64,000 nucleotides of DNA from Escherichia coli 042 (GTDB lineage Bacteria > Pseudomonadota > Gammaproteobacteria > Enterobacterales > Enterobacteriaceae): NCBI RefSeq assembly GCF_000027125.1, contig NC_017626.1, one strand, 5' to 3'. The notes beneath the pieces were generated by a model, which made no database searches, was not told the DNA's origin, and was given only the letters and a program-made list of their open reading frames with translations. This document shows positions 3,433-51,545 of the stretch, one piece after another (within the stretch, counting starts at the first letter, position 1; the number at the start of each line of letters is the position of its first letter). Both the position numbers and the translations under genes were made by a program.

Positions 3433-3445
3433 GCTCGTTCTCCAC

Positions 3446-5093: not shown

Positions 5094-5309
5094 CAGAATC
5101 CTTCCGGATAATTAGCTCTCCCCTTTAAGGGACCATCCCTCTTATCCCTGCGCGCTACTTAAGTATTTTTGATTCTATTCCGGCACCGTCCAGAACTTCA
5201 AACGCGTTGAAAATAAAAACAAAAACCCGCCGAAGCGGGTTAAGTGCGGGTGCGTTGAGGATGCCTGCCACATCAGAGGTGGCGAGGGATTTCTCCCCCG
5301 CCGGGTCTC

Positions 5310-5465
5310 TTACTCCTCAGGTTCGTAAGCTGTGAAGACAGCGACCTCCGTCTGGCCGGTTCGGATTCGTACCTCGCAGAGGTCTTTCCTCGTTACCAGT
5401 GCCGTCACTATGACGGTTAAACAGATGACGATCAGGGCGATTAACATCGCCTTTTGCTGCTTCAT
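5310..5465 (-). CDS. hokD: Hok-family membrane toxin HokD/RelF (51 aa)
   Basis: Own translation: MKQQKAMLIALIVICLTVIVTALVTRKDLCEVRIRTGQTEVAVFTAYEPEE. Below the ORF-track size cutoff; directly downstream of relE. Confidence 0.9.
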   Translation of the reverse strand: MKQQKAMLIALIVICLTVIVTALVTRKDLCEVRIRTGQTEVAVFTAYEPEE

Positions 5466-5536
5466 AGCCTGCTTCTCCTGTCAACGCAAAGCAGAAGTGT
5501 CACCTTCGGTGCGAAACAGAGATGTCATGCTTTGGT

Positions 5537-5824
5537 TCAGAGAATGCGTTTGACCGCCTCGCTATATACTTCCGAGCGTTCTCTTTTCCCAACAGAAATC
5601 ACGAAAACGACAACTTTCTCGTCTATAACCTGGTATACAAGGCGATAGCCTGAAGACCGGAGCTTAATCTTGTAACAATCAGGCATACCACGGAGCTTGT
5701 TTGCTTCAATCCGGGGTGACTCAAGTACTTCAACCAGCTTCTTTTTCAACTGTTCACGTACCGTCGAGCCCAGCTTTCGCCATTCCTTTAGTGCCCGCTC
5801 GTCAAAATCCAGAAAATACGCCAT
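5537..5824 (-). CDS. relE: mRNA interferase toxin RelE
   Basis: MAYFLDFDERALKEWRKLGSTVREQLKKKL..., 95 aa. Its start overlaps the relB stop. Confidence 0.95.
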   Translation of the reverse strand: MAYFLDFDERALKEWRKLGSTVREQLKKKLVEVLESPRIEANKLRGMPDCYKIKLRSSGYRLVYQVIDEKVVVFVISVGKRERSEVYSEAVKRIL

Positions 5825-8864: not shown

Positions 8865-9012
8865 GGGGCTTTTCTCTATCTGCCGTTGGTGTCCATGCCC
8901 GAGGCAGATAGCCTCAAGCACCCGCAGTCATTCTACTTAACTAAGATTTCCCCGCAAACCGTTTTTGTCCAGCACAGTAAATATCCAACTAAACCAATGG
9001 AGTTCGCTGTAT

Positions 9013-11160: not shown

Positions 11161-12126
11161 TTATCCTCTGAAACCAGGCGGAATTTCTGTATCCGGTTCA
11201 GAAATATGATTAACACAACGCTGTACAGGTGAACGTCCCAGGCGGATGACCAGTTCGTCCCATTTTTCGCGGAGCTTTGACGGGCTCATGATGTTTTTGA
11301 CCCAGAATGGATCTCGCTGAACCCGACCAAACATTTCGCAAATTTGTCTGTGGCTTCTGCCATCCAGCATCCGCATTGTGCGCACGTCATTGGCCCAGGC
11401 AGTCCAGTTAGGCTCTTTTGGTCGCATGATCTCGCCATCATCACTGGCTGCCTGTTCGTAGAGACCCACGATCCGCCCCCAGATCCACTGCGCACACGCC
11501 AAATCCTCCCTGCTACCCCACTGGCGTTTTTTCGCACTAAACACAACCGCGTCGGAGTTCCGGGTTAAAAAATCCTGTTCAGTCGTCTGCGGGTCCGGTT
11601 GCGAAGCTTCCGGACGAAAAGTGTTTTTATTCTCTGTAGTAGTCTCTGTTGTATTCTCTGTAAGATCATCAGGCCATTTTGACCCGATGACATTGGGTCG
11701 TTTTGAACCAATGGAGCGTTTCATTTTGACCTCTTCCATCGTGTCATTTTGACCTGATGGAGCGGCGCATTTTGAACCGATGGATTCGCTCAATTTGCCA
11801 CCATCTAAAAGCTCGCTCCCATAGTTGATCGTGTAGAAATTGGTCATATCGCGCTTTGATTTATTGAGCTTTTCACAACGCAAAAGCCCCAGCGTTTTCA
11901 GACTTGCAAACGCGCGCTTTAACGTTGACTCTGACCAGAATGGGAACTGTTCCAGCCATTGTTCCGTTGTGTTATAAATCCAGCGAACACCATCACATTC
12001 CATGCCGGAGTTGGTATCTCTCAACCAGTAGTGCAGTTGTTGCAAAACAATGGCTTCGTTTAAGCCAATTTTCATTGCCAGCTGCGTGTTTATAACCAGT
12101 GGGCGTTCAGCAAAAAGAAGGCTCAT
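11161..12126 (-). CDS. Lambdoid replication initiator (O-like replisome organiser), 321 aa from MSLLFAERPLVIN
   Basis: ORF 11161..12180 trimmed to ATG 12126. N-terminal wHTH-like region, and an internal repeated peptide IGSK encoded by DNA iterons, as for ori-lambda inside O. Confidence 0.7.
   Translation of the reverse strand: MSLLFAERPLVINTQLAMKIGLNEAIVLQQLHYWLRDTNSGMECDGVRWIYNTTEQWLEQFPFWSESTLKRAFASLKTLGLLRCEKLNKSKRDMTNFYTINYGSELLDGGKLSESIGSKCAAPSGQNDTMEEVKMKRSIGSKRPNVIGSKWPDDLTENTTETTTENKNTFRPEASQPDPQTTEQDFLTRNSDAVVFSAKKRQWGSREDLACAQWIWGRIVGLYEQAASDDGEIMRPKEPNWTAWANDVRTMRMLDGRSHRQICEMFGRVQRDPFWVKNIMSPSKLREKWDELVIRLGRSPVQRCVNHISEPDTEIPPGFRG
11675..11787. repeat. Iteron array (4-5 copies of CATTTTGA(A/C)CnGATGGA, ~23-bp spacing) inside the O-like gene: putative prophage origin
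   Basis: Copies start at 11675, 11699, 11722 (degenerate), 11745 and 11768. Confidence 0.65.
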
Positions 12127-14373: not shown

Positions 14374-14431
14374 TTTCTGGTGACGTTTGGCGGTATCAGT
14401 TTTACTCCGTGACTGCTCTGCCGCCCTTTTT
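14374..14431 (+). ncRNA. dicF: DicF small RNA (ftsZ-targeting), with its terminator
   Basis: TTTCTGGTGACGTTTGGCGGTATCAGTTTTACTCCGTGACTGCTCTGCCGCCCTTTTT matches the DicF sequence as I recall it. Lies between ydfC and dicB. Confidence 0.85.
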
Positions 14432-40594: not shown

Positions 40595-40616
40595 TGACTA
40601 CACCAGTGACTACACC
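40595..40616 (+). repeat. Tandem TGACTACACC x2 (arm-type integrase site candidate), left arm
   Basis: TGACTACACCAGTGACTACACC is identical to 51396-51417. Similarity continues for ~35 more bp (..TCGgTGCAC.., ..ACAACGTGgAACA..). Confidence 0.6.
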
Positions 40617-40934
40617 GTTCGGTGCACTGTATGAAACAACGTGGAACAAATAGACACAAGAAATATACAGGCGGGTCATCTTTCCAGGGGGAAGCGCGCT
40701 AATTCATGAGGGGCGTTAATGTTGATATGGGGATCCCCATAACGGGGCTACCGGATTTTTTTTCCGGTTAACTGTTAATCAGGCTGGTGGGCTTTACCTG
40801 TTTTGTAGGAGTGGTCATTATGACCATTCAGACAATGACCTTAATCAGAACTTTTCGCTAAAAAATGACGTTGGTCACGTCGTCCGGAAAGCACAAAATC
40901 CCGTCAATTTTTAATTAACGGTTAAACCGTCTTT

Positions 40935-40980
40935 TGTCACGGCGTGTCACTGGTTGTCACTCTCCGTCACGGTATGTCGC
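40935..40980 (+). repeat. Five TGTCAC-type hexamers at exact 10-bp phasing
   Basis: TGTCAC 40935, TGTCAC 40945, TGTCAC 40955, CGTCAC 40965, TGTCGC 40975. Lies directly 3' of the 93-aa gene. Confidence 0.7.
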
Positions 40981-40986
40981 TACTCG

Positions 40987-41268
40987 TTAACGCCGTAACC
41001 GCTCCGGCTTCTTCCAGTGGTACGTAATTTTCTCCGTTTCCCGATACAGTGCCACGCGGCGATTGTAGGCCAGCATTTCAAGAACGCGGATCCGTATGTT
41101 GCGCATATCCACATCATTAAGCTGGATACCATCACGGCGCATCACCTCAGCAACCACACGCGCGTAATTTTCGGCGGTCACGCTGTCCGGCTGCGTGGCC
41201 TGTTCGTCATGCTGCTGGCTGATTCCGGTAACGCGGCGGATTAATCCCAGTAGTTCGGCTTCTGTCAT
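40987..41268 (-). CDS. Hypothetical island protein (93 aa)
   Basis: ORF 40987..41466 trimmed to ATG 41268 behind a GGGGG RBS. The upstream part of the long ORF is just translation of the cos repeat. MTEAELLGLIRRVTGISQQHDEQATQPDSVTAENYARVVAEVMRRDGIQLNDVDMRNIRIRVLEMLAYNRRVALYRETEKITYHWKKPERLRR. Confidence 0.55.
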   Translation of the reverse strand: MTEAELLGLIRRVTGISQQHDEQATQPDSVTAENYARVVAEVMRRDGIQLNDVDMRNIRIRVLEMLAYNRRVALYRETEKITYHWKKPERLRR

Positions 41269-41301
41269 TGTGCCCCCATCGCTCTGATAGTCTGGTGTCG
41301 T

Positions 41302-41365
41302 CGGGTCCTTCCTGGAATTATGGCCCGTTACGGGGCGGCGACCTCGCGCGTTTTCACTATTTATG
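41302..41365 (+). other. Lambda-type cos site, copy 1 (cosN GGGCGGCGACCT at 41333-41344)
   Basis: CGGGTCCTTCCTGGAATTATGGCCCGTTACG|GGGCGGCGACCT|CGCGCGTTTTCACTATTTATG. This closely matches the recalled lambda right end ..GTTACG, the 12-nt cohesive end, and left-end nt 13-33. Confidence 0.8.
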
Positions 41366-41382
41366 AAAATTTTTCGGGATCC

Positions 41383-41479
41383 ATGTCCGGTTTCTCTGCA
41401 AGTTAACCATATGAAAAATATAAAAACATGCTTTCCATGAACCGGACATGCGCAAAAAACAGACACTAAAACCGGACAT
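41383..41479. promoter_or_regulatory. cosB-like array: three copies of ATGTCCGGTT (one forward, two inverted) around an AT-rich spacer
   Basis: ATGTCCGGTT 41383-41392; AACCGGACAT 41440-41449 and 41470-41479. AT-rich 41397-41430 sits between the first and second. Confidence 0.6.
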
Positions 41480-41547
41480 CGAACCAGTTAACCGAAAGTG
41501 TGCACAAATCACATGCATTGCTGCGAGTGATTAACAAGTTATCGGCT

Positions 41548-41982
41548 TTACTGTTCTGTATCGGCTGATTGCTCCATGCTGGCACGGCGAACGCTTATGG
41601 CATGACGCCACCCAGCCAGAAAGCCAGCCATTTTATTTCGTGCCTTGCTCACATCTTCCGGTGAATAGCCGTAAATCTGCAAACCTTCATCAAATCGATG
41701 TTCTGTTTCTTCACTGGAGTACTCGTCACGCTCAGATGAAAGCAGCCTGGCAAACATAATTTTTTCCAGCGCACTGGTTTCTACGTGATATCTGATGGTC
41801 TCAAGACGGCTTTTACCTGAAGACCAAAGCAATGTATGCCCGATGTGATAACCGCCAGACTTTCCGCGATCCGCATTAAGATACGGCATCCCCTGTTTGG
41901 TCCATGCGCGAATAGTGGTTCTGTTAACCTTGAAATGTTCAGCTATTTCCTGCTGACTTACAAAACAAGCTTTATCAATCAT
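41548..41982 (-). CDS. Nu1-like small-terminase-type DNA-binding protein (144 aa): N-terminal winged HTH, unrelated C-terminus
   Basis: FVSQQEIAEHFKVNRTTIRAWTKQGMPYL aligns by eye with lambda Nu1 VNKKQLADIFGASIRTIQNWQEQGMPVL. The gene starts ~70 bp from cos copy 2, as Nu1 follows cos in lambda. Confidence 0.7.
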   Translation of the reverse strand: MIDKACFVSQQEIAEHFKVNRTTIRAWTKQGMPYLNADRGKSGGYHIGHTLLWSSGKSRLETIRYHVETSALEKIMFARLLSSERDEYSSEETEHRFDEGLQIYGYSPEDVSKARNKMAGFLAGWRHAISVRRASMEQSADTEQ

Positions 41983-42050
41983 AATGTTACCTTAACTGCA
42001 TGGTTAAATATTAATCAAGTGGTGGTGGTGTCACCTTCACGGAAAAACGT

Positions 42051-42114
42051 CATAAATAGCGAAAACCCGCGAGGTCGCCGCCCCGTAACGGGCCATAATT
42101 CCAGGAAGGACCCG
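42051..42114 (-). other. Lambda-type cos site, copy 2, inverted (cosN complement AGGTCGCCGCCC at 42072-42083)
   Basis: The reverse complement is identical to copy 1 except 2 positions. Its CGCGGGTTTTCGCTATTTATGA matches the recalled lambda left end exactly. Confidence 0.8.
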
Positions 42115-42115
42115 T

Positions 42116-42138
42116 AAAAAAGCCGGATTTCTCCGGCC
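42116..42138 (-). terminator. Rho-independent terminator of the capsid operon
   Basis: Minus strand GCCGGA-GAAA-TCCGGC followed by TTTTTT. Same module at 44389-44410 and 44751-44773. Confidence 0.7.
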
Positions 42139-42143
42139 TTGTC

Positions 42144-42557
42144 TCAGATGTTTTTCAGTATGCGATCGATGTCGCCGTCATCGCCCTGGTTTCTGCCATC
42201 GTATGCCATGCCAGCTGATACGGCTTGCGGGCTGTGCATGTCCATAAAGTTTTCAAAGGCTGCGGTAAGTTCCGGCGCAACCTTCGGACGTTCCTGCTCT
42301 ATGGTCATGCTAAGGATGCTTTTAGCCGTACCAACATCGATACAAGGCACGTTTGCCATTGCACGCAACAGCGGCTGATAGTCTTTATGCTCATGAAGCG
42401 CCATAATCGCATCAGCGCGCGGCTTGTCCTGCTCTTCCAGTTTGTTTAGTTGATGTACGGCCTCATAGGTTGATAAACCTCTGTCAGCCATTGCCCGCGC
42501 TTCGACTTTAAATTTACTCGCCAGCGGTAGCGTCATGATGCTTTCATTCGTTGCCAT
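42144..42557 (-). CDS. Hypothetical island morphogenesis-operon protein (137 aa)
   Basis: Last gene of the capsid operon. MATNESIMTLPLASKFKVEARAMADRGLSTYEAVHQLNKLEEQDKPRADAIMALHEHKDY... No family recognised. Confidence 0.6.
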   Translation of the reverse strand: MATNESIMTLPLASKFKVEARAMADRGLSTYEAVHQLNKLEEQDKPRADAIMALHEHKDYQPLLRAMANVPCIDVGTAKSILSMTIEQERPKVAPELTAAFENFMDMHSPQAVSAGMAYDGRNQGDDGDIDRILKNI

Positions 42558-42569
42558 CGTTCCCCCTGC

Positions 42570-42905
42570 TTATCGGGCCAGCGGCTGAACGGATACGCCG
42601 GAACCCGCAAAGGCGGCGCATTTTTTCGCATCGGTGTCGACGCTCTCAGGCCAGTTAACGGCGGCAATATTGAATATCCCCGTCTTGTAACACTGTGCTG
42701 ATTTCTGCTTTGACGTGTCCACAGGGTACGAGGTCAGATAAACAGCCTTGCCAGATTCCTGACCATCCCACGGCTTAAACTCGCCATTGTCTGCCAGCAT
42801 CAGCGGGGTAAATTCCTGAATAACGCCAGCATCAGCGGCAAAATGTACCAACGTCGTGGATACCTGCTGACTGCCTGCAAATAACTCAATGTATGGAGTG
42901 TCCAT
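42570..42905 (-). CDS. Head decoration protein, lambda gpD family (111 aa)
   Basis: TPLMLADNGEFKPWDG..., YKTGIFNIAAVNWPE..., KKCAAFAGSGVSVQP parallel lambda gpD TPLMLDTSSRKLVAWDG, YKSGTFRYEDVLWPE, KKRTAFAGTAISIV (recalled). Confidence 0.8.
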   Translation of the reverse strand: MDTPYIELFAGSQQVSTTLVHFAADAGVIQEFTPLMLADNGEFKPWDGQESGKAVYLTSYPVDTSKQKSAQCYKTGIFNIAAVNWPESVDTDAKKCAAFAGSGVSVQPLAR

Positions 42906-42917
42906 AGAATCCCCCCG

Positions 42918-43973
42918 TTAACCAATTTTGACGGTAACAAATTTGCGAATATCTGCCGGTACCGGCTGCGGTGCACTGTGTGTCTGCACGTACTCAATCG
43001 CCGGATCGCCGTCCTCAATCCAGTTTTTCGGGTAAAACATGTTTTGTGTTGCGCCCGTTCTTACCGCTTCCTGATCCATTATCGCACCATAGGCCACCAG
43101 CCCTTTATTGTTGGTGTTACCCAGGACCAGCAAATCAGGCTCAAGGAAATATTTTTCGGTACCATCGCTGTCAGTGTATTTGCCGGAATAGACGATAAGG
43201 GCCAGATCACCAAGATAGCCTTTAAAGCTCACCACTTCGCCCAGGTTTTTACAGGCCAGTTCGGCGGCGGATTCTGAACCACGGGAAAGATCGTACAGCT
43301 CACGGAATTTTTTAAAGCTGCGTAATGTGCGCCATACCTCAGCGCCCATAATCATGACGTTTGCGGGGCAACCAGCCTGATCAGCATAAAGCTCGATGTC
43401 ATAGATTGGGTCGTGCATGTCTTTATCCTGCTCGGACCATTTTTTACCCTTGGCCTGCTCTATGATGCAGTTTTCCGGTATTTTCCAGTCGATTTCATAG
43501 CGTTCTATGCCTTCGCCCTCAATGATGTTTTTTCCGGTCGTTACCGCATTCACCGCCAGCCATTCCACGCGTGCCTTAATGGCGTTTATCTGGCGGCGCA
43601 TGTTGCCAGTAATCAGGCGCATACGGCGATAGGTAGGGTCGTTAAGCTGTGCCGGATCTTCTCCAGCCATGCGCATGATGGTTTTCGTTGGATCGATTTC
43701 GTGCTTTGGCTTCATGTAGCCAGGTTTGATTGTGCTGGTTTCGTACCCTTTATCGCGCTGAACCTGGCTACCCACCATAGGCGAACAAAACGCCGACATG
43801 GTGACTTCTTCAATGTCCAGGGTATCCAGCATGATGTTTTGCGTGCTGAATGTCGCCACGTTCGGGAAAAACAGCGTGGTAAACAGAGGGCTGAATTTAA
43901 AATCCGCAATATCCCCGCGATTCAGGTACATGAAAAGCTGGTTAGTGTTAAGTGCCGTTGCTTTGCCTGCCAT
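42918..43973 (-). CDS. Major capsid protein, lambda gpE family (351 aa)
   Basis: Blocks PGYMKPKHEIDP, DPTYRRMRLI, YSGKYTDSDG..KYFL, LVLGNTNNKGL.AYG, YPKNWIEDGDPA, SAP align with lambda gpE PGYVKPKHEVNP, DPAYRRRRII, YSGQYVENGVKKNFL, MVLGNTQARGLRTYG, YPKNWVTTGDPA, SAP (recalled). Confidence 0.9.
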   Translation of the reverse strand: MAGKATALNTNQLFMYLNRGDIADFKFSPLFTTLFFPNVATFSTQNIMLDTLDIEEVTMSAFCSPMVGSQVQRDKGYETSTIKPGYMKPKHEIDPTKTIMRMAGEDPAQLNDPTYRRMRLITGNMRRQINAIKARVEWLAVNAVTTGKNIIEGEGIERYEIDWKIPENCIIEQAKGKKWSEQDKDMHDPIYDIELYADQAGCPANVMIMGAEVWRTLRSFKKFRELYDLSRGSESAAELACKNLGEVVSFKGYLGDLALIVYSGKYTDSDGTEKYFLEPDLLVLGNTNNKGLVAYGAIMDQEAVRTGATQNMFYPKNWIEDGDPAIEYVQTHSAPQPVPADIRKFVTVKIG

Positions 43974-44179
43974 TATTCACCCCCATAATTTTTATGCATC
44001 CCAAGCGCCGCAAGTAAATAAGAGCGTACAAGTGAACCTATCGACGGCTCCGGCGTCATCAGCGGATCCAGTCCAGCCGCAACGCCAGCTTCATAGTTTT
44101 TTTTGTGGCGCTGCTTGAGCACCTCCACGATTTCGGGGCTTATGTACACCGAAACACCGCCTTTTTTCTCTTCAGCCAT
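43973..44179 (-). CDS. Hypothetical protein, first gene of the capsid operon (68 aa)
   Basis: ORF 43973..44212 trimmed to ATG 44179 (AGGAA RBS); TAATG overlap with the capsid gene. MAEEKKGGVSVYISPEIVEVLKQRHKKNYEAGVAAGLDPLMTPEPSIGSLVRSYLLAALGMHKNYGGE. Confidence 0.55.
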   Translation of the reverse strand: MAEEKKGGVSVYISPEIVEVLKQRHKKNYEAGVAAGLDPLMTPEPSIGSLVRSYLLAALGMHKNYGGE

Positions 44180-44235
44180 AGTAAGAAATTCCTCTTCGAC
44201 TAAAAAAATCATAACTGGATGTTTATCCAGTTATG

Positions 44236-44263
44236 ATTATAATCAGAATTGCATTTTATGCAA
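44236..44263 (-). promoter_or_regulatory. Sigma70-type promoter of the capsid operon (TTGCAT-16 nt-TATAAT)
   Basis: -35 at 44263..44258, -10 at 44241..44236 on the minus strand. The -35 lies inside the palindrome ATTGCAT-TTT-ATGCAAT (44248-44264). Confidence 0.5.
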
Positions 44264-44340
44264 TGATATTGAGTTATGTTGCAAATTATGAAATGATTAT
44301 CCCGATCACGAACGCCAGTGCATCCAAAAACCTCATATGC

Positions 44341-44382
44341 AAAAGCCCGATAAGAACCCTCTGACCTTATCGGGCTTTTTTT
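44341..44382. terminator. Bidirectional terminator hairpin
   Basis: AAAA-GCCCGATAAG-(11 nt)-CTTATCGGGC-TTTTTTT. Confidence 0.6.
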
Positions 44383-44388
44383 GGGCGC

Positions 44389-44410
44389 AAAAAAGCCGGA
44401 TTGCTCCGGC
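44389..44410 (-). terminator. Rho-independent terminator (copy of the GCCGGA..TCCGGC module) after the 74-aa gene
   Basis: Minus strand GCCGGAGCAATCCGGC + TTTTTT. Confidence 0.65.
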
Positions 44411-44430
44411 TATGTGTGCTGTGTGCTGGC

Positions 44431-44655
44431 TCAGTCTCTGATCTCTTTCAGAAATTCTATCAATGCATCTATCTGTTCAGGATTTACCGCCAGCATTTCA
44501 CCGGATAGAGCACATCTCACAAAACCATGCTGATCCTTTTCAATCAGTGCGCCCGTCTCCAGGAATGCGCGGTAATCATTGATGCTCATCGTCTCCATGT
44601 TGTCAGCATGGTATTTATCACGCTGTTTTAATATCTCATCAAATTTCATCGGCAT
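44431..44655 (-). CDS. Hypothetical island protein (74 aa), stand-alone cassette between two terminators
   Basis: GAGGA RBS. MPMKFDEILKQRDKYHADNMETMSINDYRAFLETGALIEKDQHGFVRCALSGEMLAVNPEQIDALIEFLKEIRD. Confidence 0.55.
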   Translation of the reverse strand: MPMKFDEILKQRDKYHADNMETMSINDYRAFLETGALIEKDQHGFVRCALSGEMLAVNPEQIDALIEFLKEIRD

Positions 44656-44750
44656 TGTTTTTTTCCTCTGTTGTGTCTGTTTGTTTCAGATAGTAACTAT
44701 GCCTGACCGTGACGAAAACCCGGTAATGCGCCATACCGTTTCAACTGGTG

Positions 44751-44773
44751 CAAAAAAAGCCGGATTTCTCCGG
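44751..44773 (-). terminator. Rho-independent terminator after the PerC-like gene
   Basis: Minus strand GCCGGAGAAATCCGGC + TTTTTTT. Confidence 0.7.
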
Positions 44774-44781
44774 CTGTTTGA

Positions 44782-45054
44782 TTAGCTGTCCTGGTAATTG
44801 CGCCATATTTCATCACCAGCACCATCTATACCCATTTCGGCATAAGTGCGATCGACTGCCTTTTTCAGGTCTCCGAAATTATCCGGCGGCTCCGGTGCCC
44901 TCTGTGCCTTCCTTGAACATTCCAGCCGTCGCATCGTGATGTGATGCCGTTCCTTGTCTGTCTCCACCAGCTGCATGACTTCACCCCATCGCGCCGCCGC
45001 CCTCCGGTAAAAGCCTTTCGCCTCCAGTTCCTCCGCTATGCGGTCATGTACCAT
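44782..45054 (-). CDS. PerC/Pch-family transcriptional activator (90 aa)
   Basis: ORF 44782..45174 trimmed to ATG 45054 behind GAGGGGG. MVHDRIAEELEAKGFYRRAAARWGEVMQLVETDKERHHITMRRLEC... parallels the PerC/Pch core ..LEEAGLWRRAATRWL.V....TDEERDWI.RRR..C (recalled). Confidence 0.7.
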   Translation of the reverse strand: MVHDRIAEELEAKGFYRRAAARWGEVMQLVETDKERHHITMRRLECSRKAQRAPEPPDNFGDLKKAVDRTYAEMGIDGAGDEIWRNYQDS

Positions 45055-45064
45055 CGTCACCCCC

Positions 45065-45475
45065 TCAGAACGAAATATCATCACCGTAAGGGTCATCGCC
45101 TCCCGCTGGTGGCTGATTACCCTGTGTGCCTGTGGTTTTGCGTCTGTTCCCGCCTGGACGTGCCGCGCGGGCACTGATTACGCTGTCTGCGATAACCTGC
45201 CAGCCCTGCCGCGTTTCTCCGTTCTGTCCGGTCCACTGGCTTACCTGCATCGTGCCGGATACGCTGGCAACATCGCCTTTTTGATGTTTAGCCAGGAAGT
45301 CGGCCTGTTTGCCAAATGCGATGACCGATAACCATAACGTCGCCTGTCCGTCCTGTGCCTGGCTGCATGGCAAAGATACCGCCATACGCGCCAGCGTCAT
45401 CGGTGTGCCCTTGCTGGTCTGTTTTACCTGCGGGTCGTCCACCAGCCGCCCGTAAGCGGCTATCTGTGCCGTCAT
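45065..45475 (-). CDS. ssb: Single-stranded DNA-binding protein (OB fold, Gly/Pro-rich linker, acidic tip DDISF)
   Basis: MTAQIAAYGRLVDDPQVKQTSKGTPMTLARMAV...GNQPPAGGDDPYGDDISF. The C-terminal tip resembles the SSB DDDIPF client-binding tail. Confidence 0.75.
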   Translation of the reverse strand: MTAQIAAYGRLVDDPQVKQTSKGTPMTLARMAVSLPCSQAQDGQATLWLSVIAFGKQADFLAKHQKGDVASVSGTMQVSQWTGQNGETRQGWQVIADSVISARAARPGGNRRKTTGTQGNQPPAGGDDPYGDDISF

Positions 45476-45723
45476 AATTCCACCTCTCCGGTTTTAACGT
45501 TGATGGTTGTTACCTGTTCCGCTTCGGCAATCTCCCGTTCTGTCAGCGTGGCAAAGTTTGCCGCCGCCGTGGTCATGAATGCGCTTATCAGGTCGGGATG
45601 TTCCTTCGCGTATCCTTCCCGCGTGTGGCGGTCTATCGTTCTGATTGCCACCTTTAAGGTGTGCTCAGTCATGTCTAACGCTTTATATTTTGGCTCTGTT
45701 CTGTCTCTGCGTTTTTGGGTCAT
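45472..45723 (-). CDS. Hypothetical island protein (83 aa; start uncertain)
   Basis: ORF 45472..45753 trimmed to ATG 45723 (GAGAGG RBS). ATGA-type overlap with the ssb start. Confidence 0.45.
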   Translation of the reverse strand: MTQKRRDRTEPKYKALDMTEHTLKVAIRTIDRHTREGYAKEHPDLISAFMTTAAANFATLTEREIAEAEQVTTINVKTGEVEL

Positions 45724-45734
45724 TTCTCGCAACC

Positions 45735-45925
45735 TCTCACTTTTTCGCCTCACTTTTTCAAGCGTCTCACTTCGTCGCAGTTGGGATTTTCGGTTTTTCT
45801 ATGTGTGTGTTTCATAAGTATTTTTTTACCCCTCACTTTTGAGGATGTATACAGGTCGAAAAGTGAGGGAGAGCGGGCTAATTTTGGCCCTCTTTCTATC
45901 CCCCTCGCTTTTGCTCCTCACTTTT
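45735..45925. repeat. Iteron cluster CTCACTTTT (6 direct or near-direct copies plus 1 inverted): putative island replication origin
   Basis: Direct copies at 45736, 45749, 45766 (CTCACTTCG), 45832, 45904 (CTCGCTTTT), 45917. Inverted copy at 45858-45869. AT-rich stretch 45781-45830. Directly 3' of the rep gene. Confidence 0.65.
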
Positions 45926-47324
45926 ATAGCGGCGCTACATCATCCCCATCGATACGAATAACCCCATCTTTTTCCAGCTTGTACAGCCAGCGCCGGAAGT
46001 TTTTCATTTCATACCCCAGCTTTTTCATGTCATCACGTAACAGCGGGATCGTGCACTTGTCGCCGTTCTGTGTGCGTGAACGGATGCACCCCCATAGCGC
46101 GGTATGGTTTTCCGTCTTGTTCCCTGCCTCCTCGATGCGCTCCAGTTCAACAGGAGGGCGCGGATCATCCACCACCACCAGCGACGTGATTAATTCACCG
46201 TCAGCGTCGGTAAAAAGCTCCACCACGCGTAAGTCATATGCGGCTTCTTTGAGTTCCTCCGCGTCCTTCATTTTGGTGCATGAGATAACCAGCGCTTCGC
46301 TTCCTGCGTCCTCCCTGCGTATCCGGTATTCAGCATCCAGCGAAGCACGAAATGCACTGGAACCGCGCGCGCCTTTCGTCTCATCCTTGCCGGAATGGTG
46401 AACCACCAGCACCGTGGCCCCTGTGCGTCGTTTCAGTTCGTCACAACCACGGATAAACGCCCCCATATCACGGGAATCATTTTCATCATTCCCACCAAAG
46501 CAACGCGCCAGCGTATCCAGAATAATCATGCGTACAGGTTTACCCGTTTCCCGCTCCACCTGACGGGCAGCGATAACCATTTCATCAACATCAAGCGGGG
46601 CAGCCGGAAAGATGGGGCGGTTTACCAGATACAGATTTTTCACCTGCTCATCGTGCACAACCTCCCAGGCTTTTACACGACGCGGAACACCTATACCGCC
46701 TTCACCAACCACATAGAGAACCGCACCATGTGCAACCCTGCGGCCTCCCCACTGGCGACCAGTGGCAACATGGCACGCCCACGATCCAGCAAGGAATGAT
46801 TTATAGGACCCGCTAGCCCCGTATATGCTGCATAGCGATACCGCCGGAATAATCCCCTTAACCACGTAATCCAGTTGCGTGTCGTATCCGGTAGATCCAA
46901 CGCTCATCGGTAGCGTGGTTTTTCGCTGGTGTTTTTTTTCTTCCGCCGGCTCTTTCCCGCGCACCCGTTCCAGGTATTCGCGCCAGTTCTCCCGCATATG
47001 GCTGTGCATCCCTTCGGGGTAATAATTCGCATCAGTTACACCCGCCGCCGCCAGCTTGTGCGCAATGGCATTAATATTTGATGGCCTGATGTGGCCTGCC
47101 TTGTACAGCCGGACACAATAGCGCCCCTCGTCGATGATTCTCAGGTCTGCCAGTTCATCCAGTTGATCATCAGCCAGCACAACGGGAGGCACATTATCGC
47201 CAGCCAGTCGCCCGTCCTGTTCCTGCCACTGTTTCGCATGTGCCCAGGCATCACTACCCGCAAAAATAATGACTTCGGTCATCTTGTCGTAAGGCTGTTT
47301 TTTTAAGTTCGGTGCGCTTTTCAT
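45924..47324 (-). CDS. Replication initiator ATPase (RecA/RepA-like AAA_25-type core, C-terminal wHTH), 466 aa
   Basis: Walker A GASGSYKS, Walker B MIILDTLARCFGG, VLVVHHSGKDETKGARGSSA sensor region. C-terminal basic wHTH-like tail. Confidence 0.8.
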   Translation of the reverse strand: MKSAPNLKKQPYDKMTEVIIFAGSDAWAHAKQWQEQDGRLAGDNVPPVVLADDQLDELADLRIIDEGRYCVRLYKAGHIRPSNINAIAHKLAAAGVTDANYYPEGMHSHMRENWREYLERVRGKEPAEEKKHQRKTTLPMSVGSTGYDTQLDYVVKGIIPAVSLCSIYGASGSYKSFLAGSWACHVATGRQWGGRRVAHGAVLYVVGEGGIGVPRRVKAWEVVHDEQVKNLYLVNRPIFPAAPLDVDEMVIAARQVERETGKPVRMIILDTLARCFGGNDENDSRDMGAFIRGCDELKRRTGATVLVVHHSGKDETKGARGSSAFRASLDAEYRIRREDAGSEALVISCTKMKDAEELKEAAYDLRVVELFTDADGELITSLVVVDDPRPPVELERIEEAGNKTENHTALWGCIRSRTQNGDKCTIPLLRDDMKKLGYEMKNFRRWLYKLEKDGVIRIDGDDVAPL

Positions 47325-47620
47325 TTCTTGCCCCTGAATCCGTTAACCATGGTTTTCAGCTTCTGGATGTTTGCCCGTGCCCTGGCGTTGCTGGTGGGCA
47401 CGTTATGCGGCGCGGTCTGTACCAGAGAAAAATCACGCCGGAACTGATAAACAGGCATCACGCAATCATATTCGTAACCTTCACGGCGGTAGGTTACGCG
47501 CCGTTCTTCCACGTCCTTAATCATTACCGTGCCGCCGTACTGGTCGCGGTAAATATCACCGCGCGTAAATTTAGGGTGAGTGTTGCCACTGGCAGTTAAG
47601 CCAGAATATTTAAGTTTCAT
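47321..47620 (-). CDS. DUF4222-like small protein (99 aa)
   Basis: ..GDIYRDQYGGTVMIKDVEERRVTYRREGYEYDCVMPVYQFRRDFSLV resembles the DUF4222 pattern as I recall it. ATGA overlap with rep. Confidence 0.5.
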   Translation of the reverse strand: MKLKYSGLTASGNTHPKFTRGDIYRDQYGGTVMIKDVEERRVTYRREGYEYDCVMPVYQFRRDFSLVQTAPHNVPTSNARARANIQKLKTMVNGFRGKK

Positions 47621-47625
47621 TATTT

Positions 47626-47859
47626 TTATTCTCCGGTGTGCTGTTCTTTATATCTGTCGTGCAATAGATCTATTTCTTGCAGTTCCATTATTACAGGCTC
47701 AAGAAGCGTTATTAATGCTGTGGCAATTCTTGATTTTTGTTTGTCGCGTTCATTGTCGCCAAGTGTTTCAAGCCATATGCGCAATATTTCCATCATGTTT
47801 TCACTGTGAGAAAGTGCAAGAAATGCGCGGTCTATTGTTTGGTGGTAAATATCACGCAT
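47626..47859 (-). CDS. Hypothetical island protein (77 aa)
   Basis: MRDIYHQTIDRAFLALSHSENMMEILRIWLETLGDNERDKQKSRIATALITLLEPVIMELQEIDLLHDRYKEQHTGE; helical, overlaps the upstream gene by 8 nt. Confidence 0.5.
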   Translation of the reverse strand: MRDIYHQTIDRAFLALSHSENMMEILRIWLETLGDNERDKQKSRIATALITLLEPVIMELQEIDLLHDRYKEQHTGE

Positions 47860-48319
47860 GGCTTACATCCTCAGGAAATTTTCTTCTATAACGCGCCTCT
47901 GCCACATATTCCGCATAATCGGCGGCGATATTCAGTACATCAAGCCCCGTTGATTTATATTCTCTCGTGGAAAGTAAGAAAAAAGCCGCTCTAATAAGTT
48001 CTGGCATTGACGAAAGCGCATCAGCCGCATCATCAGGAACGCCGGAAAATTCCTGTTTCAGGGAATTAAAACGATCATCACGCATAACCCCCCCCCCATT
48101 TTCACAATCAGCAATCAGGATAGCTTTGGCCTCATTCAGCGCCGTATCAGCACTAAATTGCATGACAGCCAGTGAGTGAGGAACGAAAGCACCGGCATAT
48201 TCTGTTTCGCTGGTGGCGTGCTTATGTGCCCTGTCCGCGATAACAGAAATATCAATCAGCGCGTGCATCAGCGTTTTGATGGCTTCGGCGGCTGCGTCCG
48301 GTGTGGTTTTATTGTGCAT
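47852..48319 (-). CDS. Hypothetical island protein (155 aa)
   Basis: MHNKTTPDAAAEAIKTLMHALIDISVIADRAHKHATSETEYAGAFVPHSLAVMQF... No family recognised; part of the tightly packed early operon. Confidence 0.55.
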   Translation of the reverse strand: MHNKTTPDAAAEAIKTLMHALIDISVIADRAHKHATSETEYAGAFVPHSLAVMQFSADTALNEAKAILIADCENGGGVMRDDRFNSLKQEFSGVPDDAADALSSMPELIRAAFFLLSTREYKSTGLDVLNIAADYAEYVAEARYRRKFPEDVSHA

Positions 48320-48521
48320 AAAGCATCCCCTGAATATTCGTGTTAATCATTCCGGCACGTTTTGTGATTTCCTGTAATGATTCCCTTGTGGCGACAATTG
48401 CTTCATCTGGTAAGTGGTAATTACACACCACGCGACCTTTATCCACATTGACCAGTAGCTGCCCTGTGAATTTCTCACGAAACTGAATGCGGTTAAGGTC
48501 AGTAAGTGACAGATTAATCAT
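48309..48521 (-). CDS. Hypothetical island protein (70 aa)
   Basis: ORF 48309..48563 trimmed to ATG 48521 behind AGGAGG. MINLSLTDLNRIQFREKFTGQLLVNVDKGRVVCNYHLPDEAIVATRESLQEITKRAGMINTNIQGMLYAQ. Confidence 0.5.
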   Translation of the reverse strand: MINLSLTDLNRIQFREKFTGQLLVNVDKGRVVCNYHLPDEAIVATRESLQEITKRAGMINTNIQGMLYAQ

Positions 48522-48711
48522 GGCGCACCTCCTGACGAATACGGGCGGCAAATACAGCAACACAACCGGACGGGCAACGGTTACGCGCTTCGCGTTCCGT
48601 CCAGGCGGTTACGTGGATGATTTGAGATTCTCCGGCACTCAGTGCCAGAAAACGCCACACAAAGGCCGTTTGTGTGTGTACAAGGTGTGGTATATGATTT
48701 ACAGCAACCAT
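48514..48711 (-). CDS. Small protein resembling Icd-like host cell-division inhibitors of P4-type elements (65 aa); tentative
   Basis: ORF 48514..48786 trimmed to ATG 48711 behind AGGAG. ..FVWRFLALSAGESQIIHVTAWTEREARNRCPSGCVAVFAARI fits my recollection of the F.W.F.A....V.A..E.EAR......FAAR pattern. Confidence 0.4.
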   Translation of the reverse strand: MVAVNHIPHLVHTQTAFVWRFLALSAGESQIIHVTAWTEREARNRCPSGCVAVFAARIRQEVRHD

Positions 48712-48784
48712 AACGGCTCCTAGTTTACGTTGTTGGTTAGAAGCCCTGCGAGTGGTAACGACACTTGCGGGGCTTTGTCTTTTC
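48703..48784 (+). ncRNA. Candidate ~80-nt antisense RNA across the RBS/start of the first early gene
   Basis: Extended -10 TGgTATATG (48688-48696) upstream. Then a 14-bp stem (48741-48754 / 48762-48775, two G-U pairs only on the plus-strand RNA) followed by TGTCTTTTC. Confidence 0.3.
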
Positions 48785-48802
48785 ATCGATTACCTTGATA
48801 AA

Positions 48803-48884
48803 GGTGTCAGCCACTATATTAGTAACGGGTGTCAGCCACGTCAATAGTGTTTTTCCGTTTTCTTGTGTGTATACTGTCAGCCAC
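48803..48884. promoter_or_regulatory. Divergent switch region: three GTCAGCCAC operators interleaved with face-to-face promoters
   Basis: GGTGTCAGCCAC at 48803-48814 and 48828-48839; CTGTCAGCCAC at 48874-48884. Minus-strand promoter TTGACG (48844..48839)-17 nt-TAATAT (48821..48816). Plus-strand TATACT at 48870-48875. Confidence 0.6.
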
Positions 48885-48905
48885 CTAATAACGAGGAAAT
48901 CAGAT

Positions 48906-49085
48906 ATGGCAACAAAAGCAGTTAATGCAAAATCCAAAAAGCTTGAGGCTCGAGTACCACACGCAATAGCTGATGCTGTAGAAAATTTAAAGGAAGATGG
49001 CGAAAGTACAGGGCAATTTATCGTTTCGGCACTTGAAGGCGAGATCAAACGCCGCCAGCGCCGCAAGGCCAAAGAATCAGAATAA
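48906..49085 (+). CDS. Ribbon-helix-helix-like small DNA-binding protein (59 aa): candidate island repressor
   Basis: ORF 48765..49085 trimmed to ATG 48906 behind AGGAA. MATKAVNAKSKKLEARVPHAIADAVENLKEDGESTGQFIVSALEGEIKRRQRRKAKESE has a beta-strand/helix/helix pattern typical of Arc/CopG proteins. Confidence 0.55.
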   Translation: MATKAVNAKSKKLEARVPHAIADAVENLKEDGESTGQFIVSALEGEIKRRQRRKAKESE

Positions 49086-49127
49086 TCACTATCAGCGCCG
49101 TGGTGTGAGGTATTACGGCGCATTGCT

Positions 49128-49316
49128 ATGCAGGACAACACAATGACCGATAAAGAATTGACCAAAACATTATCACCGGCACGGAAAAGACGGCGCAGAA
49201 AGATAGAGCATGAATCAGAAAGATTCGCACCATGTGCTTTTGCCCTTGAGCAATTCCTTAAAGAGTACAGGGAAAAGCGCTCATTGCAGGTATGGCAACG
49301 AACTGAACCAGACTGA
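49128..49316 (+). CDS. Possible second small gene of the plus-strand unit (62 aa, basic)
   Basis: ORF-track MQDNTMTDKELTKTLSPARKRRRRKIEHESERFAPCAFALEQFLKEYREKRSLQVWQRTEPD. Weak RBS, so may instead be non-coding. Confidence 0.3.
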   Translation: MQDNTMTDKELTKTLSPARKRRRRKIEHESERFAPCAFALEQFLKEYREKRSLQVWQRTEPD

Positions 49317-49411
49317 TTGCATTGCCCACCAGCCTGATAGCGGCTATCATCCCCGTGCTTATGTTTGGGATCACACACACAAACGGCGCAGCGGGTTATC
49401 TGTTCAGAAAG

Positions 49412-49439
49412 GCGGCTCCATTTCGGGGCCGCTTTTTTT
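49412..49439 (+). terminator. Rho-independent terminator of the plus-strand unit
   Basis: GCGGCTCC-ATTTC-GGGGCCGC followed by TTTTTTT. Confidence 0.65.
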
Positions 49440-49585
49440 ATACCTGAAAAACCCCAATTTTGTTGTTTTTCAGTTTCACCAGGGCGAACGAATCCCCGCC
49501 CACGTTCTGGCGTATATTCAATCTTCATGGTTATAGCTCTGTGTTCAGATGATTGATGTGTGGCGGCTGCGTGCCGCCAGCGTGA

Positions 49586-49774
49586 TTAATGAACTGCCTT
49601 GCAGCTATCCTTCCAGGCCAGAACCTCGGATAAAGACCAGCCAACGGAACGACCGCCAAGTTTACGACGTGATGGGAATTGTCCGGCCTTTTCCAGGCGG
49701 TAGCGACACGTACGGCTAAGGCCGGTTAGTTTTTCGCATTCTTTTTCACGTATAAACCGATCAGTGCTTAACAC
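49586..49774 (-). CDS. alpA: AlpA-family HTH regulator/excisionase (62 aa, GTG start)
   Basis: Strong GGGGGGG RBS. ..DRFIREKECEKLTGLSRTCRYRLEKAGQFPSRRKLGGRSVGWSLSEVLAWKD is the AlpA/MerR-like HTH signature. Confidence 0.85.
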   Translation of the reverse strand: MLSTDRFIREKECEKLTGLSRTCRYRLEKAGQFPSRRKLGGRSVGWSLSEVLAWKDSCKAVH

Positions 49775-50107
49775 TATTGCCCCCCCTTTCGTTTCTTAAA
49801 GAGTCATCAGGTGTCTTATTGTGTCGTATTGTTCCCGCTAGAGTGATGAATGGCAAATATTGAGGATGTATGATTTACAGAAAATGAAACAGTAAGAATA
49901 AAATCTTTTAAATTCATGTTAATACAAAGGCATAAAATATTGTTTCATGCCTTTTTTCTCGCTCTTTAAAGAGTGATTCGCTAGTGTATAAAAAACCAGT
50001 GACACATTAAAAATCAGCCACTTATAAATCTGTATGCTTTTTCGCCTCTTGTTCGTGGTTGTTCCACATTGTTGCTCATTGTTGCACGTTGTATCTGTTC
50101 GCATATA

Positions 50108-50123
50108 CAGTATGCGCATACTG
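50108..50123. promoter_or_regulatory. Perfect 16-bp palindrome CAGTATGCGCATACTG just 3' of int
   Basis: No loop, so more likely a protein-binding site than an RNA hairpin. Adjacent ATTGTTGC direct repeats at 50068-50087. Confidence 0.4.
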
Positions 50124-50140
50124 AAAAAACACGAAAAAAA

Positions 50141-51370
50141 TTATTTTCTTCTGGCTACTGGTAGCGTGGTTACGTTTTCATGTGTTCCCGCCAGTATCCC
50201 TAACCGCTCCGTCCACATATCCAGCGCATTGCGTTTAGCATCCAGATAACGGGAATGATTATAAACTCGCTGCATTCCTGGCATCTGGTGGCCTGTAAGC
50301 TGCTCCACGACATGCGGATCAACGCCTAAATCGTTCAGCATGGTTGTAAAGGTGCGCCGGATGTCATGCAGTGACCAGTGAGGATGATTAAGCCTCCTGT
50401 GCGCTAATCTTCCATACTGCGATACGCTGGCCTCCTGTTTCACTTCCCCCAGCAATAAGCCCGTGTGCCTGTTCTGCTCCACCAGCTGCGTGACGAACGG
50501 CAGGATCGCTTCCGGTATGGGCCGGAATATTGCGACCTTCGTTTTGCTGTGCTCCTTCGGAACGGTCCATAGCATTTCCGTAAAATCCCACTCCCCGATC
50601 TCCGATAACCTCAGTTCTACCGTTCTGGCTCCGAAGACAATCAGGAGGCGGATTAACGCGACGTAGTAAGGGGAGAATATTTTTTTGTCCAGTGCCTGCA
50701 ATAATTCGCCAAGTTCTTTGTTACTTAAGACACGTTCGCTTATATCCGGTTTTTTCCCAACGTCCGCCACGTTCAGATCGTCCAGAACGTTGCTGATTGC
50801 ATAGCGCCGCCTACGGCAGAACTTAAGCGCCTGTTTGCACGCCTGTAGCACGAATCCGGCAGTAACAGGCGTTCGCTTTGCCACCTGGTCAAAACAGGCC
50901 AGCCAGTGCCGTAGCTCGCATTTATCCAGCGGCATAGCACCAATCTGCTGTATTACGTGATTATTAAGTCGCCTTTTCAGGGCGATATAATCCACGCGGT
51001 TTTCCTTTACGTAATACTCAAGCCAGTAGGTGAGCGCATCGCCAACCGTTACCGGCTTTAACGCTTCCTGTACGGTGTAATTAAGCTCATGACGTGGATT
51101 TTTCCCCTCTGCCAGCCATGCGCGACACTGGGCGGCTTTTTCCCTGGCTGATTTCAGGCTCAGATCAGGATAACTTCCCAGCTTAATGCGTTCGGGTCGT
51201 GTCTCCCTTCCCGTTCCGGCCCTGTATGTGAAATACCAGGTCAATTTCCCTGATGTTAAATATTTCACGCTCAGGTTTCCGCCATCACTATAAAACGTGT
51301 TTTTCTCCGCTGGCTTACCATGAAGTTTCCTTAGCAAGGTATCGCTCAGTTTGTTCATTGCTCTGCTCAC
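50141..51370 (-). CDS. int: P4-type tyrosine integrase (DUF4102 arm-binding N-terminus), 409 aa, GTG start behind GAGGGGG
   Basis: N-terminus ..LSDTLLRKLHGKPAEKNTFYSDGGNLSVKYLTSGKLTWYFTYR... Catalytic ARTVELRLSE (R), HDIRRTFTT (H..R), GHQMPGMQRVYNHSRY (H..Y). Confidence 0.9.
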   Translation of the reverse strand: MSRAMNKLSDTLLRKLHGKPAEKNTFYSDGGNLSVKYLTSGKLTWYFTYRAGTGRETRPERIKLGSYPDLSLKSAREKAAQCRAWLAEGKNPRHELNYTVQEALKPVTVGDALTYWLEYYVKENRVDYIALKRRLNNHVIQQIGAMPLDKCELRHWLACFDQVAKRTPVTAGFVLQACKQALKFCRRRRYAISNVLDDLNVADVGKKPDISERVLSNKELGELLQALDKKIFSPYYVALIRLLIVFGARTVELRLSEIGEWDFTEMLWTVPKEHSKTKVAIFRPIPEAILPFVTQLVEQNRHTGLLLGEVKQEASVSQYGRLAHRRLNHPHWSLHDIRRTFTTMLNDLGVDPHVVEQLTGHQMPGMQRVYNHSRYLDAKRNALDMWTERLGILAGTHENVTTLPVARRK

Positions 51371-51395
51371 GTTTTACCCCCTCTTTACGAAAAAG

Positions 51396-51417
51396 TGACT
51401 ACACCAGTGACTACACC
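51396..51417 (+). repeat. Tandem TGACTACACC x2 (arm-type site candidate), right arm, just upstream of int
   Basis: Identical to 40595-40616. Confidence 0.6.
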
Positions 51418-51545
51418 GATCGTTGCACAAAGGGCTACAACGTGAAACAAGCTGGAACAAGGAAAATCACAAATCTGTTGATAATCAAAAACATAATGCA
51501 CAGCCTGAAACATTATGAAACAGCAAAAAACACCAAATGATAAAA

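Follow-up and report, generated by a model that had tools for sequence, protein, structure and literature searches.

A predicted ribbon-helix-helix repressor and its matched operators at the divergent early promoters of a phage-inducible chromosomal island of Escherichia coli 042

Operators, divergent promoters and the protein encoded beside them

The DNA analysed here, referred to as the window, is a stretch of 64,000 nucleotides from contig NC_017626.1 of Escherichia coli 042, in which positions 40595-51418 form a 10.8-kb phage-inducible chromosomal island (PICI) of the classical type, inserted in tqsA beside pntBA. The early region of the island holds two divergent transcription units: a minus-strand operon that runs from a gene for an Icd-like protein to one for a RepA-family helicase, and a short plus-strand unit whose first gene (hereafter, the RHH gene) codes for a 59-residue protein of predicted ribbon-helix-helix (RHH) fold. 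Three copies of a short repeat lie over core elements of the two predicted promoters, and the comparisons presented below suggest that these repeats are the cognate sites of the RHH protein, which would repress the early operon as well as its own gene. Since 2018, Gram-negative PICIs have been stated to be without a known repressor and to be controlled by the activator AlpA (PMC6092414), and the initial annotation of this DNA had represented the literature correctly in this respect; because the module bears on this stated gap, its relevance to PICI biology is high. In the literature that we searched, no paper assigned a function to the RHH protein or described its operators. The features of the module are:

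48804-48814, plus strand: operator O1, GTGTCAGCCAC, 2-12 nt downstream of the -10 of P_early and over the expected minus-strand start site
48829-48839, plus strand: operator O2, GTGTCAGCCAC, the first 11 nt of the P_early spacer, the last base being common to the -35
48874-48884, plus strand: operator O3, CTGTCAGCCAC, with a weaker left arm, overlapping the -10 and the expected start site of the RHH gene promoter
48816-48844, minus strand: P_early, predicted sigma-70 promoter (TTGACG at 48844-48839, 17-nt spacer, TAATAT at 48821-48816)
48870-48875, plus strand: TATACT, predicted -10 hexamer of P_rhh, conserved in the family
48906-49085, plus strand: RHH gene, 59-residue protein of the YlcI/YnfO family, predicted recognition strand at residues 11-15 (KKLEA)
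49143-49316, plus strand: open reading frame (ORF) 2, 57 residues, downstream of the RHH gene in the same unit; match to phrog_21027 (E 1.6e-15)
49411-49439, plus strand: intrinsic terminator of the unit (stem 49411-49433, then U7 to 49439)

The 10-mer TGTCAGCCAC occurs in exactly three copies in the window, at 48805, 48830 and 48875, and the operator 9-mer, when both strands are scanned, has three exact copies, all in this region; GGTGTCAGCCAC is found at 48803-48814 and 48828-48839, and CTGTCAGCCAC at 48874-48884. Only one other 10-mer of the window reaches three copies within 100 bp, in the lambdoid ori iterons at 11675, and such a repeat cluster arose in none of 300 Markov-simulated windows; a chance origin of the operator cluster is excluded. 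The operator, promoter, ORF and terminator coordinates given in the initial annotation all agree with the sequence. The minus-strand promoter, described there as near-consensus with operators in its spacer/-35 and over its start, was recovered by a consensus scan (9 of 12 consensus matches) and is predicted to drive the operon from the Icd-like gene to the RepA helicase gene. The RHH gene has a GAGGA Shine-Dalgarno sequence 7 nt upstream, and for P_rhh no good -35 is present in this window. The terminator of the plus-strand unit is as clean as had been claimed, with a folding energy of -22.4 kcal/mol (z = -4.4) on the plus strand, against -14.6 on the minus strand. The promoters had been called face-to-face; P_early and P_rhh in fact lie back-to-back.

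The RHH protein matches the NCBIfam family NF041551 (YlcI/YnfO) over residues 9-50 (60.6 bits, cut-off 30; E 1.1e-16), and RefSeq names its homologues accordingly. It also matches PHROG 949, of 'unknown function', and no Pfam family at E <= 0.1, Arc and DUF3950 included. An AlphaFold model (pLDDT 89.7) shows an extended N-terminus followed by two helices, the beta-alpha-alpha arrangement of the RHH (MetJ/Arc) superfamily, and among 46 sequences the G-x-S/T/N turn between the helices, G32-E33-S34-T35, has an invariant E33 and at least 90% conservation of the other three residues. The model thus supports the RHH-like pattern noted initially, and the product of 48906-49085 is predicted to have a ribbon-helix-helix fold. 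The family is a narrow one: 88 clusters were counted at 90% identity, and 95 at 50% among 1.84 billion representatives. A tblastn search of 50,697 phage records returned no homologue, and in a survey from 2026 YlcI/YnfO appears only as a 'prophage-associated protein' (PMC13612085).

Covariation and natural exchange of the module

The comparison covered 67 loci from species genomes, together with several E. coli islands; the 59 loci with an intact architecture, which are spread over the Enterobacterales (E. coli, Xenorhabdus, Pectobacterium, Yersinia and Serratia among them), were tabulated. O2 is found in 59/59 loci at -75 to -78 relative to the ATG, with few departures from -77, abutting a conserved TCAA, and O3, in nearly all of them, at -32 and fused to a conserved GTATACTG; an O1-equivalent site, in direct or inverted orientation, lies at -98 to -112 in almost all. 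The conserved scaffold reads gTG.....CAc.TCAA ... T-rich ... GTATAcTG.....CAC, where TCAA corresponds to the -35 of P_early and TATACT to the -10 of P_rhh; GTATAcTG is its most conserved block, and the TTGA of the P_early -35 is kept across 20 class representatives. The 5-bp cores of the operators vary between loci but not among the three sites of one locus, and they track residues 11-15 of the RHH protein. Eight classes were tabulated, given here as residues 11-15 followed by the operator, and further classes exist:

KKLEA: GTGTCAGCCAC
KRFDV: GTGTCGGACAC
QT[ILV]AA: GTGTTGAACAC
QALKA: GTGTGGCCCAC
QQLNA: GTGAATCGCAC
LQVSV: GTGAACACCAC
QMTTV: GTGAAATACAC
QKLQA: GTGGACTCCAC

Between loci that share residues 11-15, a mean of 0.45 operator positions differ (211 locus pairs), as against 3.92 between loci with different residues (1500 pairs), and all exceptions to this covariation (35/35) are conservative changes, K/R, I/L/V or A/V. 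The KKLEA proteins of E. coli and Xenorhabdus are 94-100% identical over residues 1-18 and 57-65% over residues 19-55; the operator of this class is conserved, identical but for one 1-bp variant. Several operator classes are perfect 11-bp palindromes, that of the window being near-palindromic, of the form GTG-N5-CAC; the perfect palindromes and the occurrence of O1 in either orientation fit the presence of one symmetric RHH dimer per site. Taken together, the sequences point to at least about 13 functional specificity classes on one scaffold.

Islands in which parts of this region have been exchanged were also found (loci of the comparison are designated by L and a number). In L069, an EcCIEDL933-type island of O157:H7, AlpA and the Icd-like protein are the same as in the window (identical RefSeq accessions), and at 3283-3516 two ATGGTAATTACCAT palindromes and a gene for a 57-residue Arc-like RHH protein, a match to phrog_228, take the place of the operators and the RHH gene; the palindromes occupy the same positions on the promoter. 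The island of strain MBT-5 (L071) and EcCICFT073 match the window in ORF2, which is identical, and nearly so in AlpA (98% in MBT-5); their RHH allele is of the QALKA type and their operators read GTGTGGCCCAC. The prototype EcCICFT073 of E. coli CFT073 thus carries the module (L073, 7243-8053), with the YlcI/YnfO gene C_RS30120, whose high-numbered locus tag suggests that the gene was added after the original CFT073 annotation; ORF2 is called by PGAP in the same genome. Lastly, L070 is a different PICI, at tRNA-Pro, with an AlpA only 21% identical and a primase in place of RepA; its positions 4849-5659 form an 811-bp block 98.5% identical to 48628-49438 of the window, with an identical RHH protein and identical operators. 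The block holds the candidate antisense RNA described below, the operators, the RHH gene, ORF2 and the terminator; as it is common to otherwise different PICIs and ends exactly at the terminator, which is its right-hand edge (block end 49438), the module moves as a unit. In all three natural recombinants, it is the RHH protein alone that changes together with the operators. The initial suggestion that the three repeats are the operators of this protein is thereby supported by both covariation and natural swaps, and we take them to be its probable cognate sites.

Predicted repression, rival explanations and related systems

We consider it probable that the RHH protein is an autoregulated repressor of the early promoter, with a matched and exchangeable operator module, an accompanying antisense RNA and induction routed through AlpA. 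We infer binding, autoregulation and the induction route from the comparisons, and repression from the geometry of the sites. The protein would bind, as a dimer, to each of the three 11-bp GTG-N5-CAC operators; with O2, in the spacer and touching the -35, and O1, over the start site, both occupied, RNA polymerase would be kept from P_early, and the satellite replication genes, from the Icd-like gene to the RepA helicase gene, would stay off. Occupancy of the weaker O3, over the -10 and start site of its own promoter, would result in negative autoregulation. Residues 11-15, on the predicted beta-strand, and the 5-bp core would form a matched specificity pair, exchangeable in the style of phage immunity regions, and the antisense RNA, which would cover the ribosome-binding site at the head of the early operon, would probably be a second, translational lock. 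Induction would occur via AlpA, probably by transcription from the alpA side that converges on, and passes through, the RHH gene. In related loci the RHH gene is usually the sole plus-strand gene inside a minus-strand array, so that transcription from alpA converges on it. In many relatives (L002, L004, L019, L023, L024, L040, L061-L064, L067 and L068), a gene on the same strand as alpA codes for a protein of 170-300 residues and separates alpA from the RHH gene; it also converges on the RHH gene and its sequence looks like that of a Bro-N/antirepressor-type protein. The antitermination activity of the Pseudomonas AlpA was not used in support of read-through; that protein is a larger, eight-helix, Q-like protein (PMC9371919) and looks, from its description, unrelated to the 62-residue PF05930 AlpA of the window.

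Helpers switch on alpA, the product of which is an activator required for PICI induction, and over-expression of AlpA alone induces EcCICFT073 and EcCIEDL933 (PMC6092414; 10.1101/2022.09.08.507074; 10.1101/2025.02.11.637232). In the window, no operator is found near the alpA promoter. For these two reasons we do not favour the initial proposal that the RHH protein is the target of a helper-encoded anti-repressor. Several observations also weigh against the repressor reading itself. Repression is deduced from operator position alone. EcCICFT073 carries the module and is nevertheless induced by AlpA alone, so that the RHH protein is no insurmountable master lock, and as P_rhh lacks a recognisable -35, its steady-state expression in the quiescent island is not a given. 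Depending on the class, O1 and O2 are spaced 22 to 35 bp apart, and cooperative tetramer formation is therefore not implied; moreover, Foldseek and sequence searches of the PDB with the RHH protein returned nothing significant. Finally, the gene adjoins its sites, and the covariation could in principle reflect shared descent, although this explanation is disfavoured by the natural swaps and by the fact that all three sites change in concert. Of the autoregulated master repressor proposed initially, then, an autoregulated repressor of the early operon would fit the placement of the sites on both core promoters, but the master switch is difficult to maintain in view of the induction of a module-bearing island by AlpA alone.

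The same observations can be read in other ways. The RHH protein could be made only after induction and then lower both divergent promoters, limiting early expression in the manner of P22 Arc at Pant and Pmnt, with quiescence kept by other means such as a lack of AlpA or the antisense RNA. The poor -35 of P_rhh, the sufficiency of AlpA for induction (PMC6092414) and the bona fide Arc-like protein in the same slot of EcCIEDL933-type islands would all suit such a shut-off. We regard it as unlikely, since a near-consensus P_early needs something to hold it off in quiescence and since the RHH gene, the only plus-strand gene, has its own promoter and terminator and would be expressible independently of the induced minus-strand transcription. 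A role confined to its own unit, for instance as the antitoxin-like partner of ORF2 or of other cargo and with no part in the control of the early operon, is suggested by the position of ORF2 next in the same transcription unit. However, Xenorhabdus loci are without ORF2 and have alpA within about 220 bp after the RHH gene, ORF2 has no toxin or defence family match in Pfam, NCBIfam or PADLOC, and two of the three sites lie on core elements of P_early, with a placement relative to the -35 that is conserved family-wide; we find this role very unlikely. A toxin-antitoxin pair with an RHH antitoxin, or defence cargo, was likewise rejected, as the three databases give no support, ORF2 is absent from many loci and covariation is lacking. 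ORF2, which is unchanged where the operators change, is variable cargo outside the core module.

From O2, about 47 bp before the start site of P_rhh, the RHH protein could instead stimulate P_rhh or P_early. The distance resembles that of lambda CI at OR2 relative to PRM, and a weak -35 suits an activated promoter; yet the P_early sites are inside the spacer and over +1, positions typical of repression, and no RHH activator with such a geometry was retrieved. We hold activation as the sole function to be highly improbable, but the protein may activate P_rhh in addition to repressing P_early. Hardly credible, in our view, is that another factor, AlpA, the Icd-like protein, ORF2 or a host protein, reads the repeats and that the RHH gene is merely adjacent, in spite of the role of AlpA as the known activator of these islands (PMC6092414), the matches of the Icd-like protein to PHROGs labelled 'transcriptional repressor', and a copy of the 9-mer with one mismatch upstream of alpA, at 50013. 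AlpA was rejected as the reader because an identical AlpA occurs with unrelated repeats in L069 and an unrelated one with identical repeats in L070, the Icd-like protein because it is also identical in L069, and ORF2 because it is identical in L071 and EcCICFT073, where the repeats differ; about 13 site classes are inexplicable by a host factor. The site at 50013 has no GTG arm and is retained in the Arc-type island, and is therefore attributed to chance.

RHH repressors acting at divergent promoters are a well-known kind of regulator, exemplified by P22 Arc and Mnt, CopG and omega. The immI region of P22 combines the small RHH repressors Arc and Mnt, operators over the divergent promoters Pant and Pmnt, autoregulation and the sar antisense RNA. 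The PICI module resembles it in having a small RHH protein, sites overlapping two divergent core promoters, predicted autoregulation and a candidate small cis-antisense RNA over a neighbouring ribosome-binding site, and EcCIEDL933-type islands hold their Arc-like protein in the same slot. It differs in that the protein belongs to the YlcI/YnfO family and has no Pfam Arc match, in that there are three separate 11-bp single-dimer sites rather than one 21-bp tetramer operator, in controlling a satellite replication operon rather than an antirepressor gene, and in its many interchangeable specificities on one scaffold. In lambda OR, three graded operators lie between the divergent promoters PR and PRM, and the immunity specificity is exchangeable. 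The module likewise has three sites, graded in quality, between promoters that diverge back-to-back, one protein predicted both to repress the lytic-side promoter and to autoregulate, and a specificity exchangeable between relatives; unlike lambda CI, its protein is of the RHH and not the helix-turn-helix type, no Cro counterpart was identified, the 59 residues have no SOS-cleavable domain, and the switch is thrown by AlpA. CopG of pMV158 and omega of pSM19035 also act as RHH dimers on short repeats at a replication-gene promoter, with autoregulation, and omega accepts direct or inverted repeats (PDB 2bnw title), as O1 does across loci. Those proteins serve plasmid copy control, here the element is an integrated satellite; the sites of omega are long arrays of 7-bp heptads and that of CopG is a 13-bp element in the promoter of its own operon, whereas the PICI has three 11-bp sites and two divergent promoters.

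The master repressors Stl and Rpr of Gram-positive PICIs (SaPIs) are likewise encoded divergently from an excision/replication operon that they hold off (PMC6092414 for Stl), and the RHH gene is similarly divergent, with predicted sites at both promoters and a predicted repression of the operon. Stl is, by contrast, a much larger helix-turn-helix protein relieved by the binding of a helper protein, while induction here needs AlpA, which alone suffices (PMC6092414), with no sign of a helper anti-repressor. The K-12 proteins YlcI (DLP12) and YnfO (Qin) share the NF041551 family and the strand-helix-helix sequence pattern; K-12 YlcI, annotated as Pfam DUF3950, is only 20% identical to the RHH protein of the window, and its gene adjoins cos/nohD and is not placed at a divergent early promoter.

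A bolder proposal, which we advance tentatively and think rather doubtful, is that in many enterobacterial PICIs, EcCICFT073 included, an overlooked immunity-like module is the real off-switch, made up of a very small RHH repressor whose five-residue recognition strand is reprogrammable, three matching operators at set positions on the promoter scaffold and a cis-antisense RNA against the Icd-like gene, and that AlpA-driven transcription converges on the repressor gene, silences it and then reads into the early operon, instead of AlpA activating P_early. If so, one cell could house several satellites that do not repress each other, given a dozen or more orthogonal specificities. Of 20 pairs of copies that share a species genome, 19 are of different class, against about 17 expected by chance, so that heteroimmunity of co-resident copies is suggestive only. 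In X. indica (L011, L065 and L066), the RHH gene is cut by the ends of two contigs and is also present on a contig of 755 bp; this genome therefore seems to hold several islands with the same cassette, which speaks against strict heteroimmunity. With a candidate protein, operators at base-pair resolution in model islands and natural specificity variants, the question of the PICI repressor is now testable. The module also matters for how PICI-based delivery and diagnostic vehicles are designed, and offers a set of about 13 compact, apparently orthogonal predicted repressor/operator pairs on one scaffold.

Candidate antisense RNA and island context

Just left of O1, and complementary to the Shine-Dalgarno sequence and start codon of the Icd-like gene, the window codes for a candidate cis-antisense RNA:

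48693-48786, plus strand: interval of the candidate antisense RNA (about 80 nt), its candidate -10 and its terminator
48693-48698, plus strand: candidate -10, TATGAT
48706-48709 and 48734-48737, plus strand: outer helix
48712-48715 and 48728-48731, plus strand: stem-loop, the loop CUCC being the anti-Shine-Dalgarno of the Icd-like gene
48740-48776, plus strand: terminator hairpin, followed by a U-rich tail

The T-A-n-n-n-T of the candidate -10 is invariant in 28 loci and its spacing is right for a -10. The hairpin, found at about -165 in 27/27 representatives, folds with -27.6 kcal/mol on the plus strand and -16.3 kcal/mol on the minus strand. In the alignment, 95.3% of the cells are paired, as against 34-43% in slid controls, a value reached by none of 500 shuffles; compensatory changes occur in 13 of 23 pairs, and G-U cells number 87 on the plus strand and 4 on the minus strand. 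In Rfam, no match to P1 c4, P4 CI or IsrK was found at E <= 10 in 47500-50300, and none at the gathering score window-wide; the known immunity RNAs C4 and IsrK were therefore rejected as its identity. The structure at 48693-48786 is best described as a predicted antisense RNA, distinct and uncatalogued in Rfam, whose existence as a transcript is suggested by the conserved pairing and promoter-like hexamer.

Three further observations concern this segment. On the minus strand, the opening codons of the Icd-like gene contain a terminator-like hairpin with a U-rich tail (48656-48676); weak, with 8 pairs, it could be an attenuator. A perfect 15-nt inverted repeat, (AC)-rich, brackets the module (48665-48679, GCCGTTTGTGTGTGT; 49373-49387, ACACACACAAACGGC) and is degenerate in L069, L070 and L073. 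The sequence TATGATTTACAG occurs on the plus strand both in the candidate antisense promoter (48693-48704) and just upstream of the alpA -35 (49869-49880), the copy by the early genes not being conserved. As neither the inverted repeat nor the TATGATTTACAG duplicate is conserved in related islands, both are probably coincidental. A TTCTGTAAA core upstream of the alpA -35 is kept in related islands and could belong to an AlpA site.

The remaining features of the island are:

40595-40617 and 51396-51418: 23-bp direct repeat TGACTACACCAGTGACTACACCG bounding the island, probably the att sites
45924-48711, minus strand: early operon under P_early, its genes all overlapping or abutting
48514-48711, minus strand: Icd-like gene, first of the early operon
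minus strand, listed between the Icd-like and DUF4222 genes: three small ORFs of the early operon
47321-47620, minus strand: DUF4222 gene of the early operon
45924-47324, minus strand: RepA-family helicase gene of the early operon
49586-49774, minus strand: alpA (Pfam PF05930, E 5e-17), converging on the plus-strand RHH unit

The genes of the island are integrase, alpA, the plus-strand unit and then minus-strand genes, the last comprising the Icd-like gene, small ORFs, and genes for DUF4222, the RepA-family helicase, SSB, PerC and lambda E/D-like capsid proteins. A capsid-forming PICI was considered and rejected as the identity of the island, which is a classical PICI; the capsid-forming PICI of strain 14EC001 carries an early region 99% identical to that of the window. 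In that strain, a 263-residue ORF antisense to the whole plus-strand unit (48737-49528, minus strand) is annotated by PGAP as 'hypothetical protein', and in other genomes as a pseudogene; it is almost certainly spurious and masks the real genes, an annotation problem that recurs, since PGAP sometimes calls it over the plus-strand unit. Directly downstream of the RepA helicase gene, four C-n-C-CTCACTT(TT) copies at 45741-45925, about 17 to 85 bp apart, are probably the replication-origin iterons of the island. Near the far end, an accessory ORF (41548-41982, minus strand) has a weak PADLOC match to mad1 (E 5e-5) and may be defence cargo. A Qin-like cryptic prophage makes up the left part of the window; Rfam models matched there at the gathering score are the cspA thermoregulator, the sok antitoxin RNA and DicF (1514-1906, 8752-8923 and 14375-14426). 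At 11675-11770, CATTTTGACC(N)GATG iterons lie inside a 339-residue replication-protein-like ORF of the neighbouring lambdoid (Qin-type) prophage, and form an ordinary lambda-style origin.

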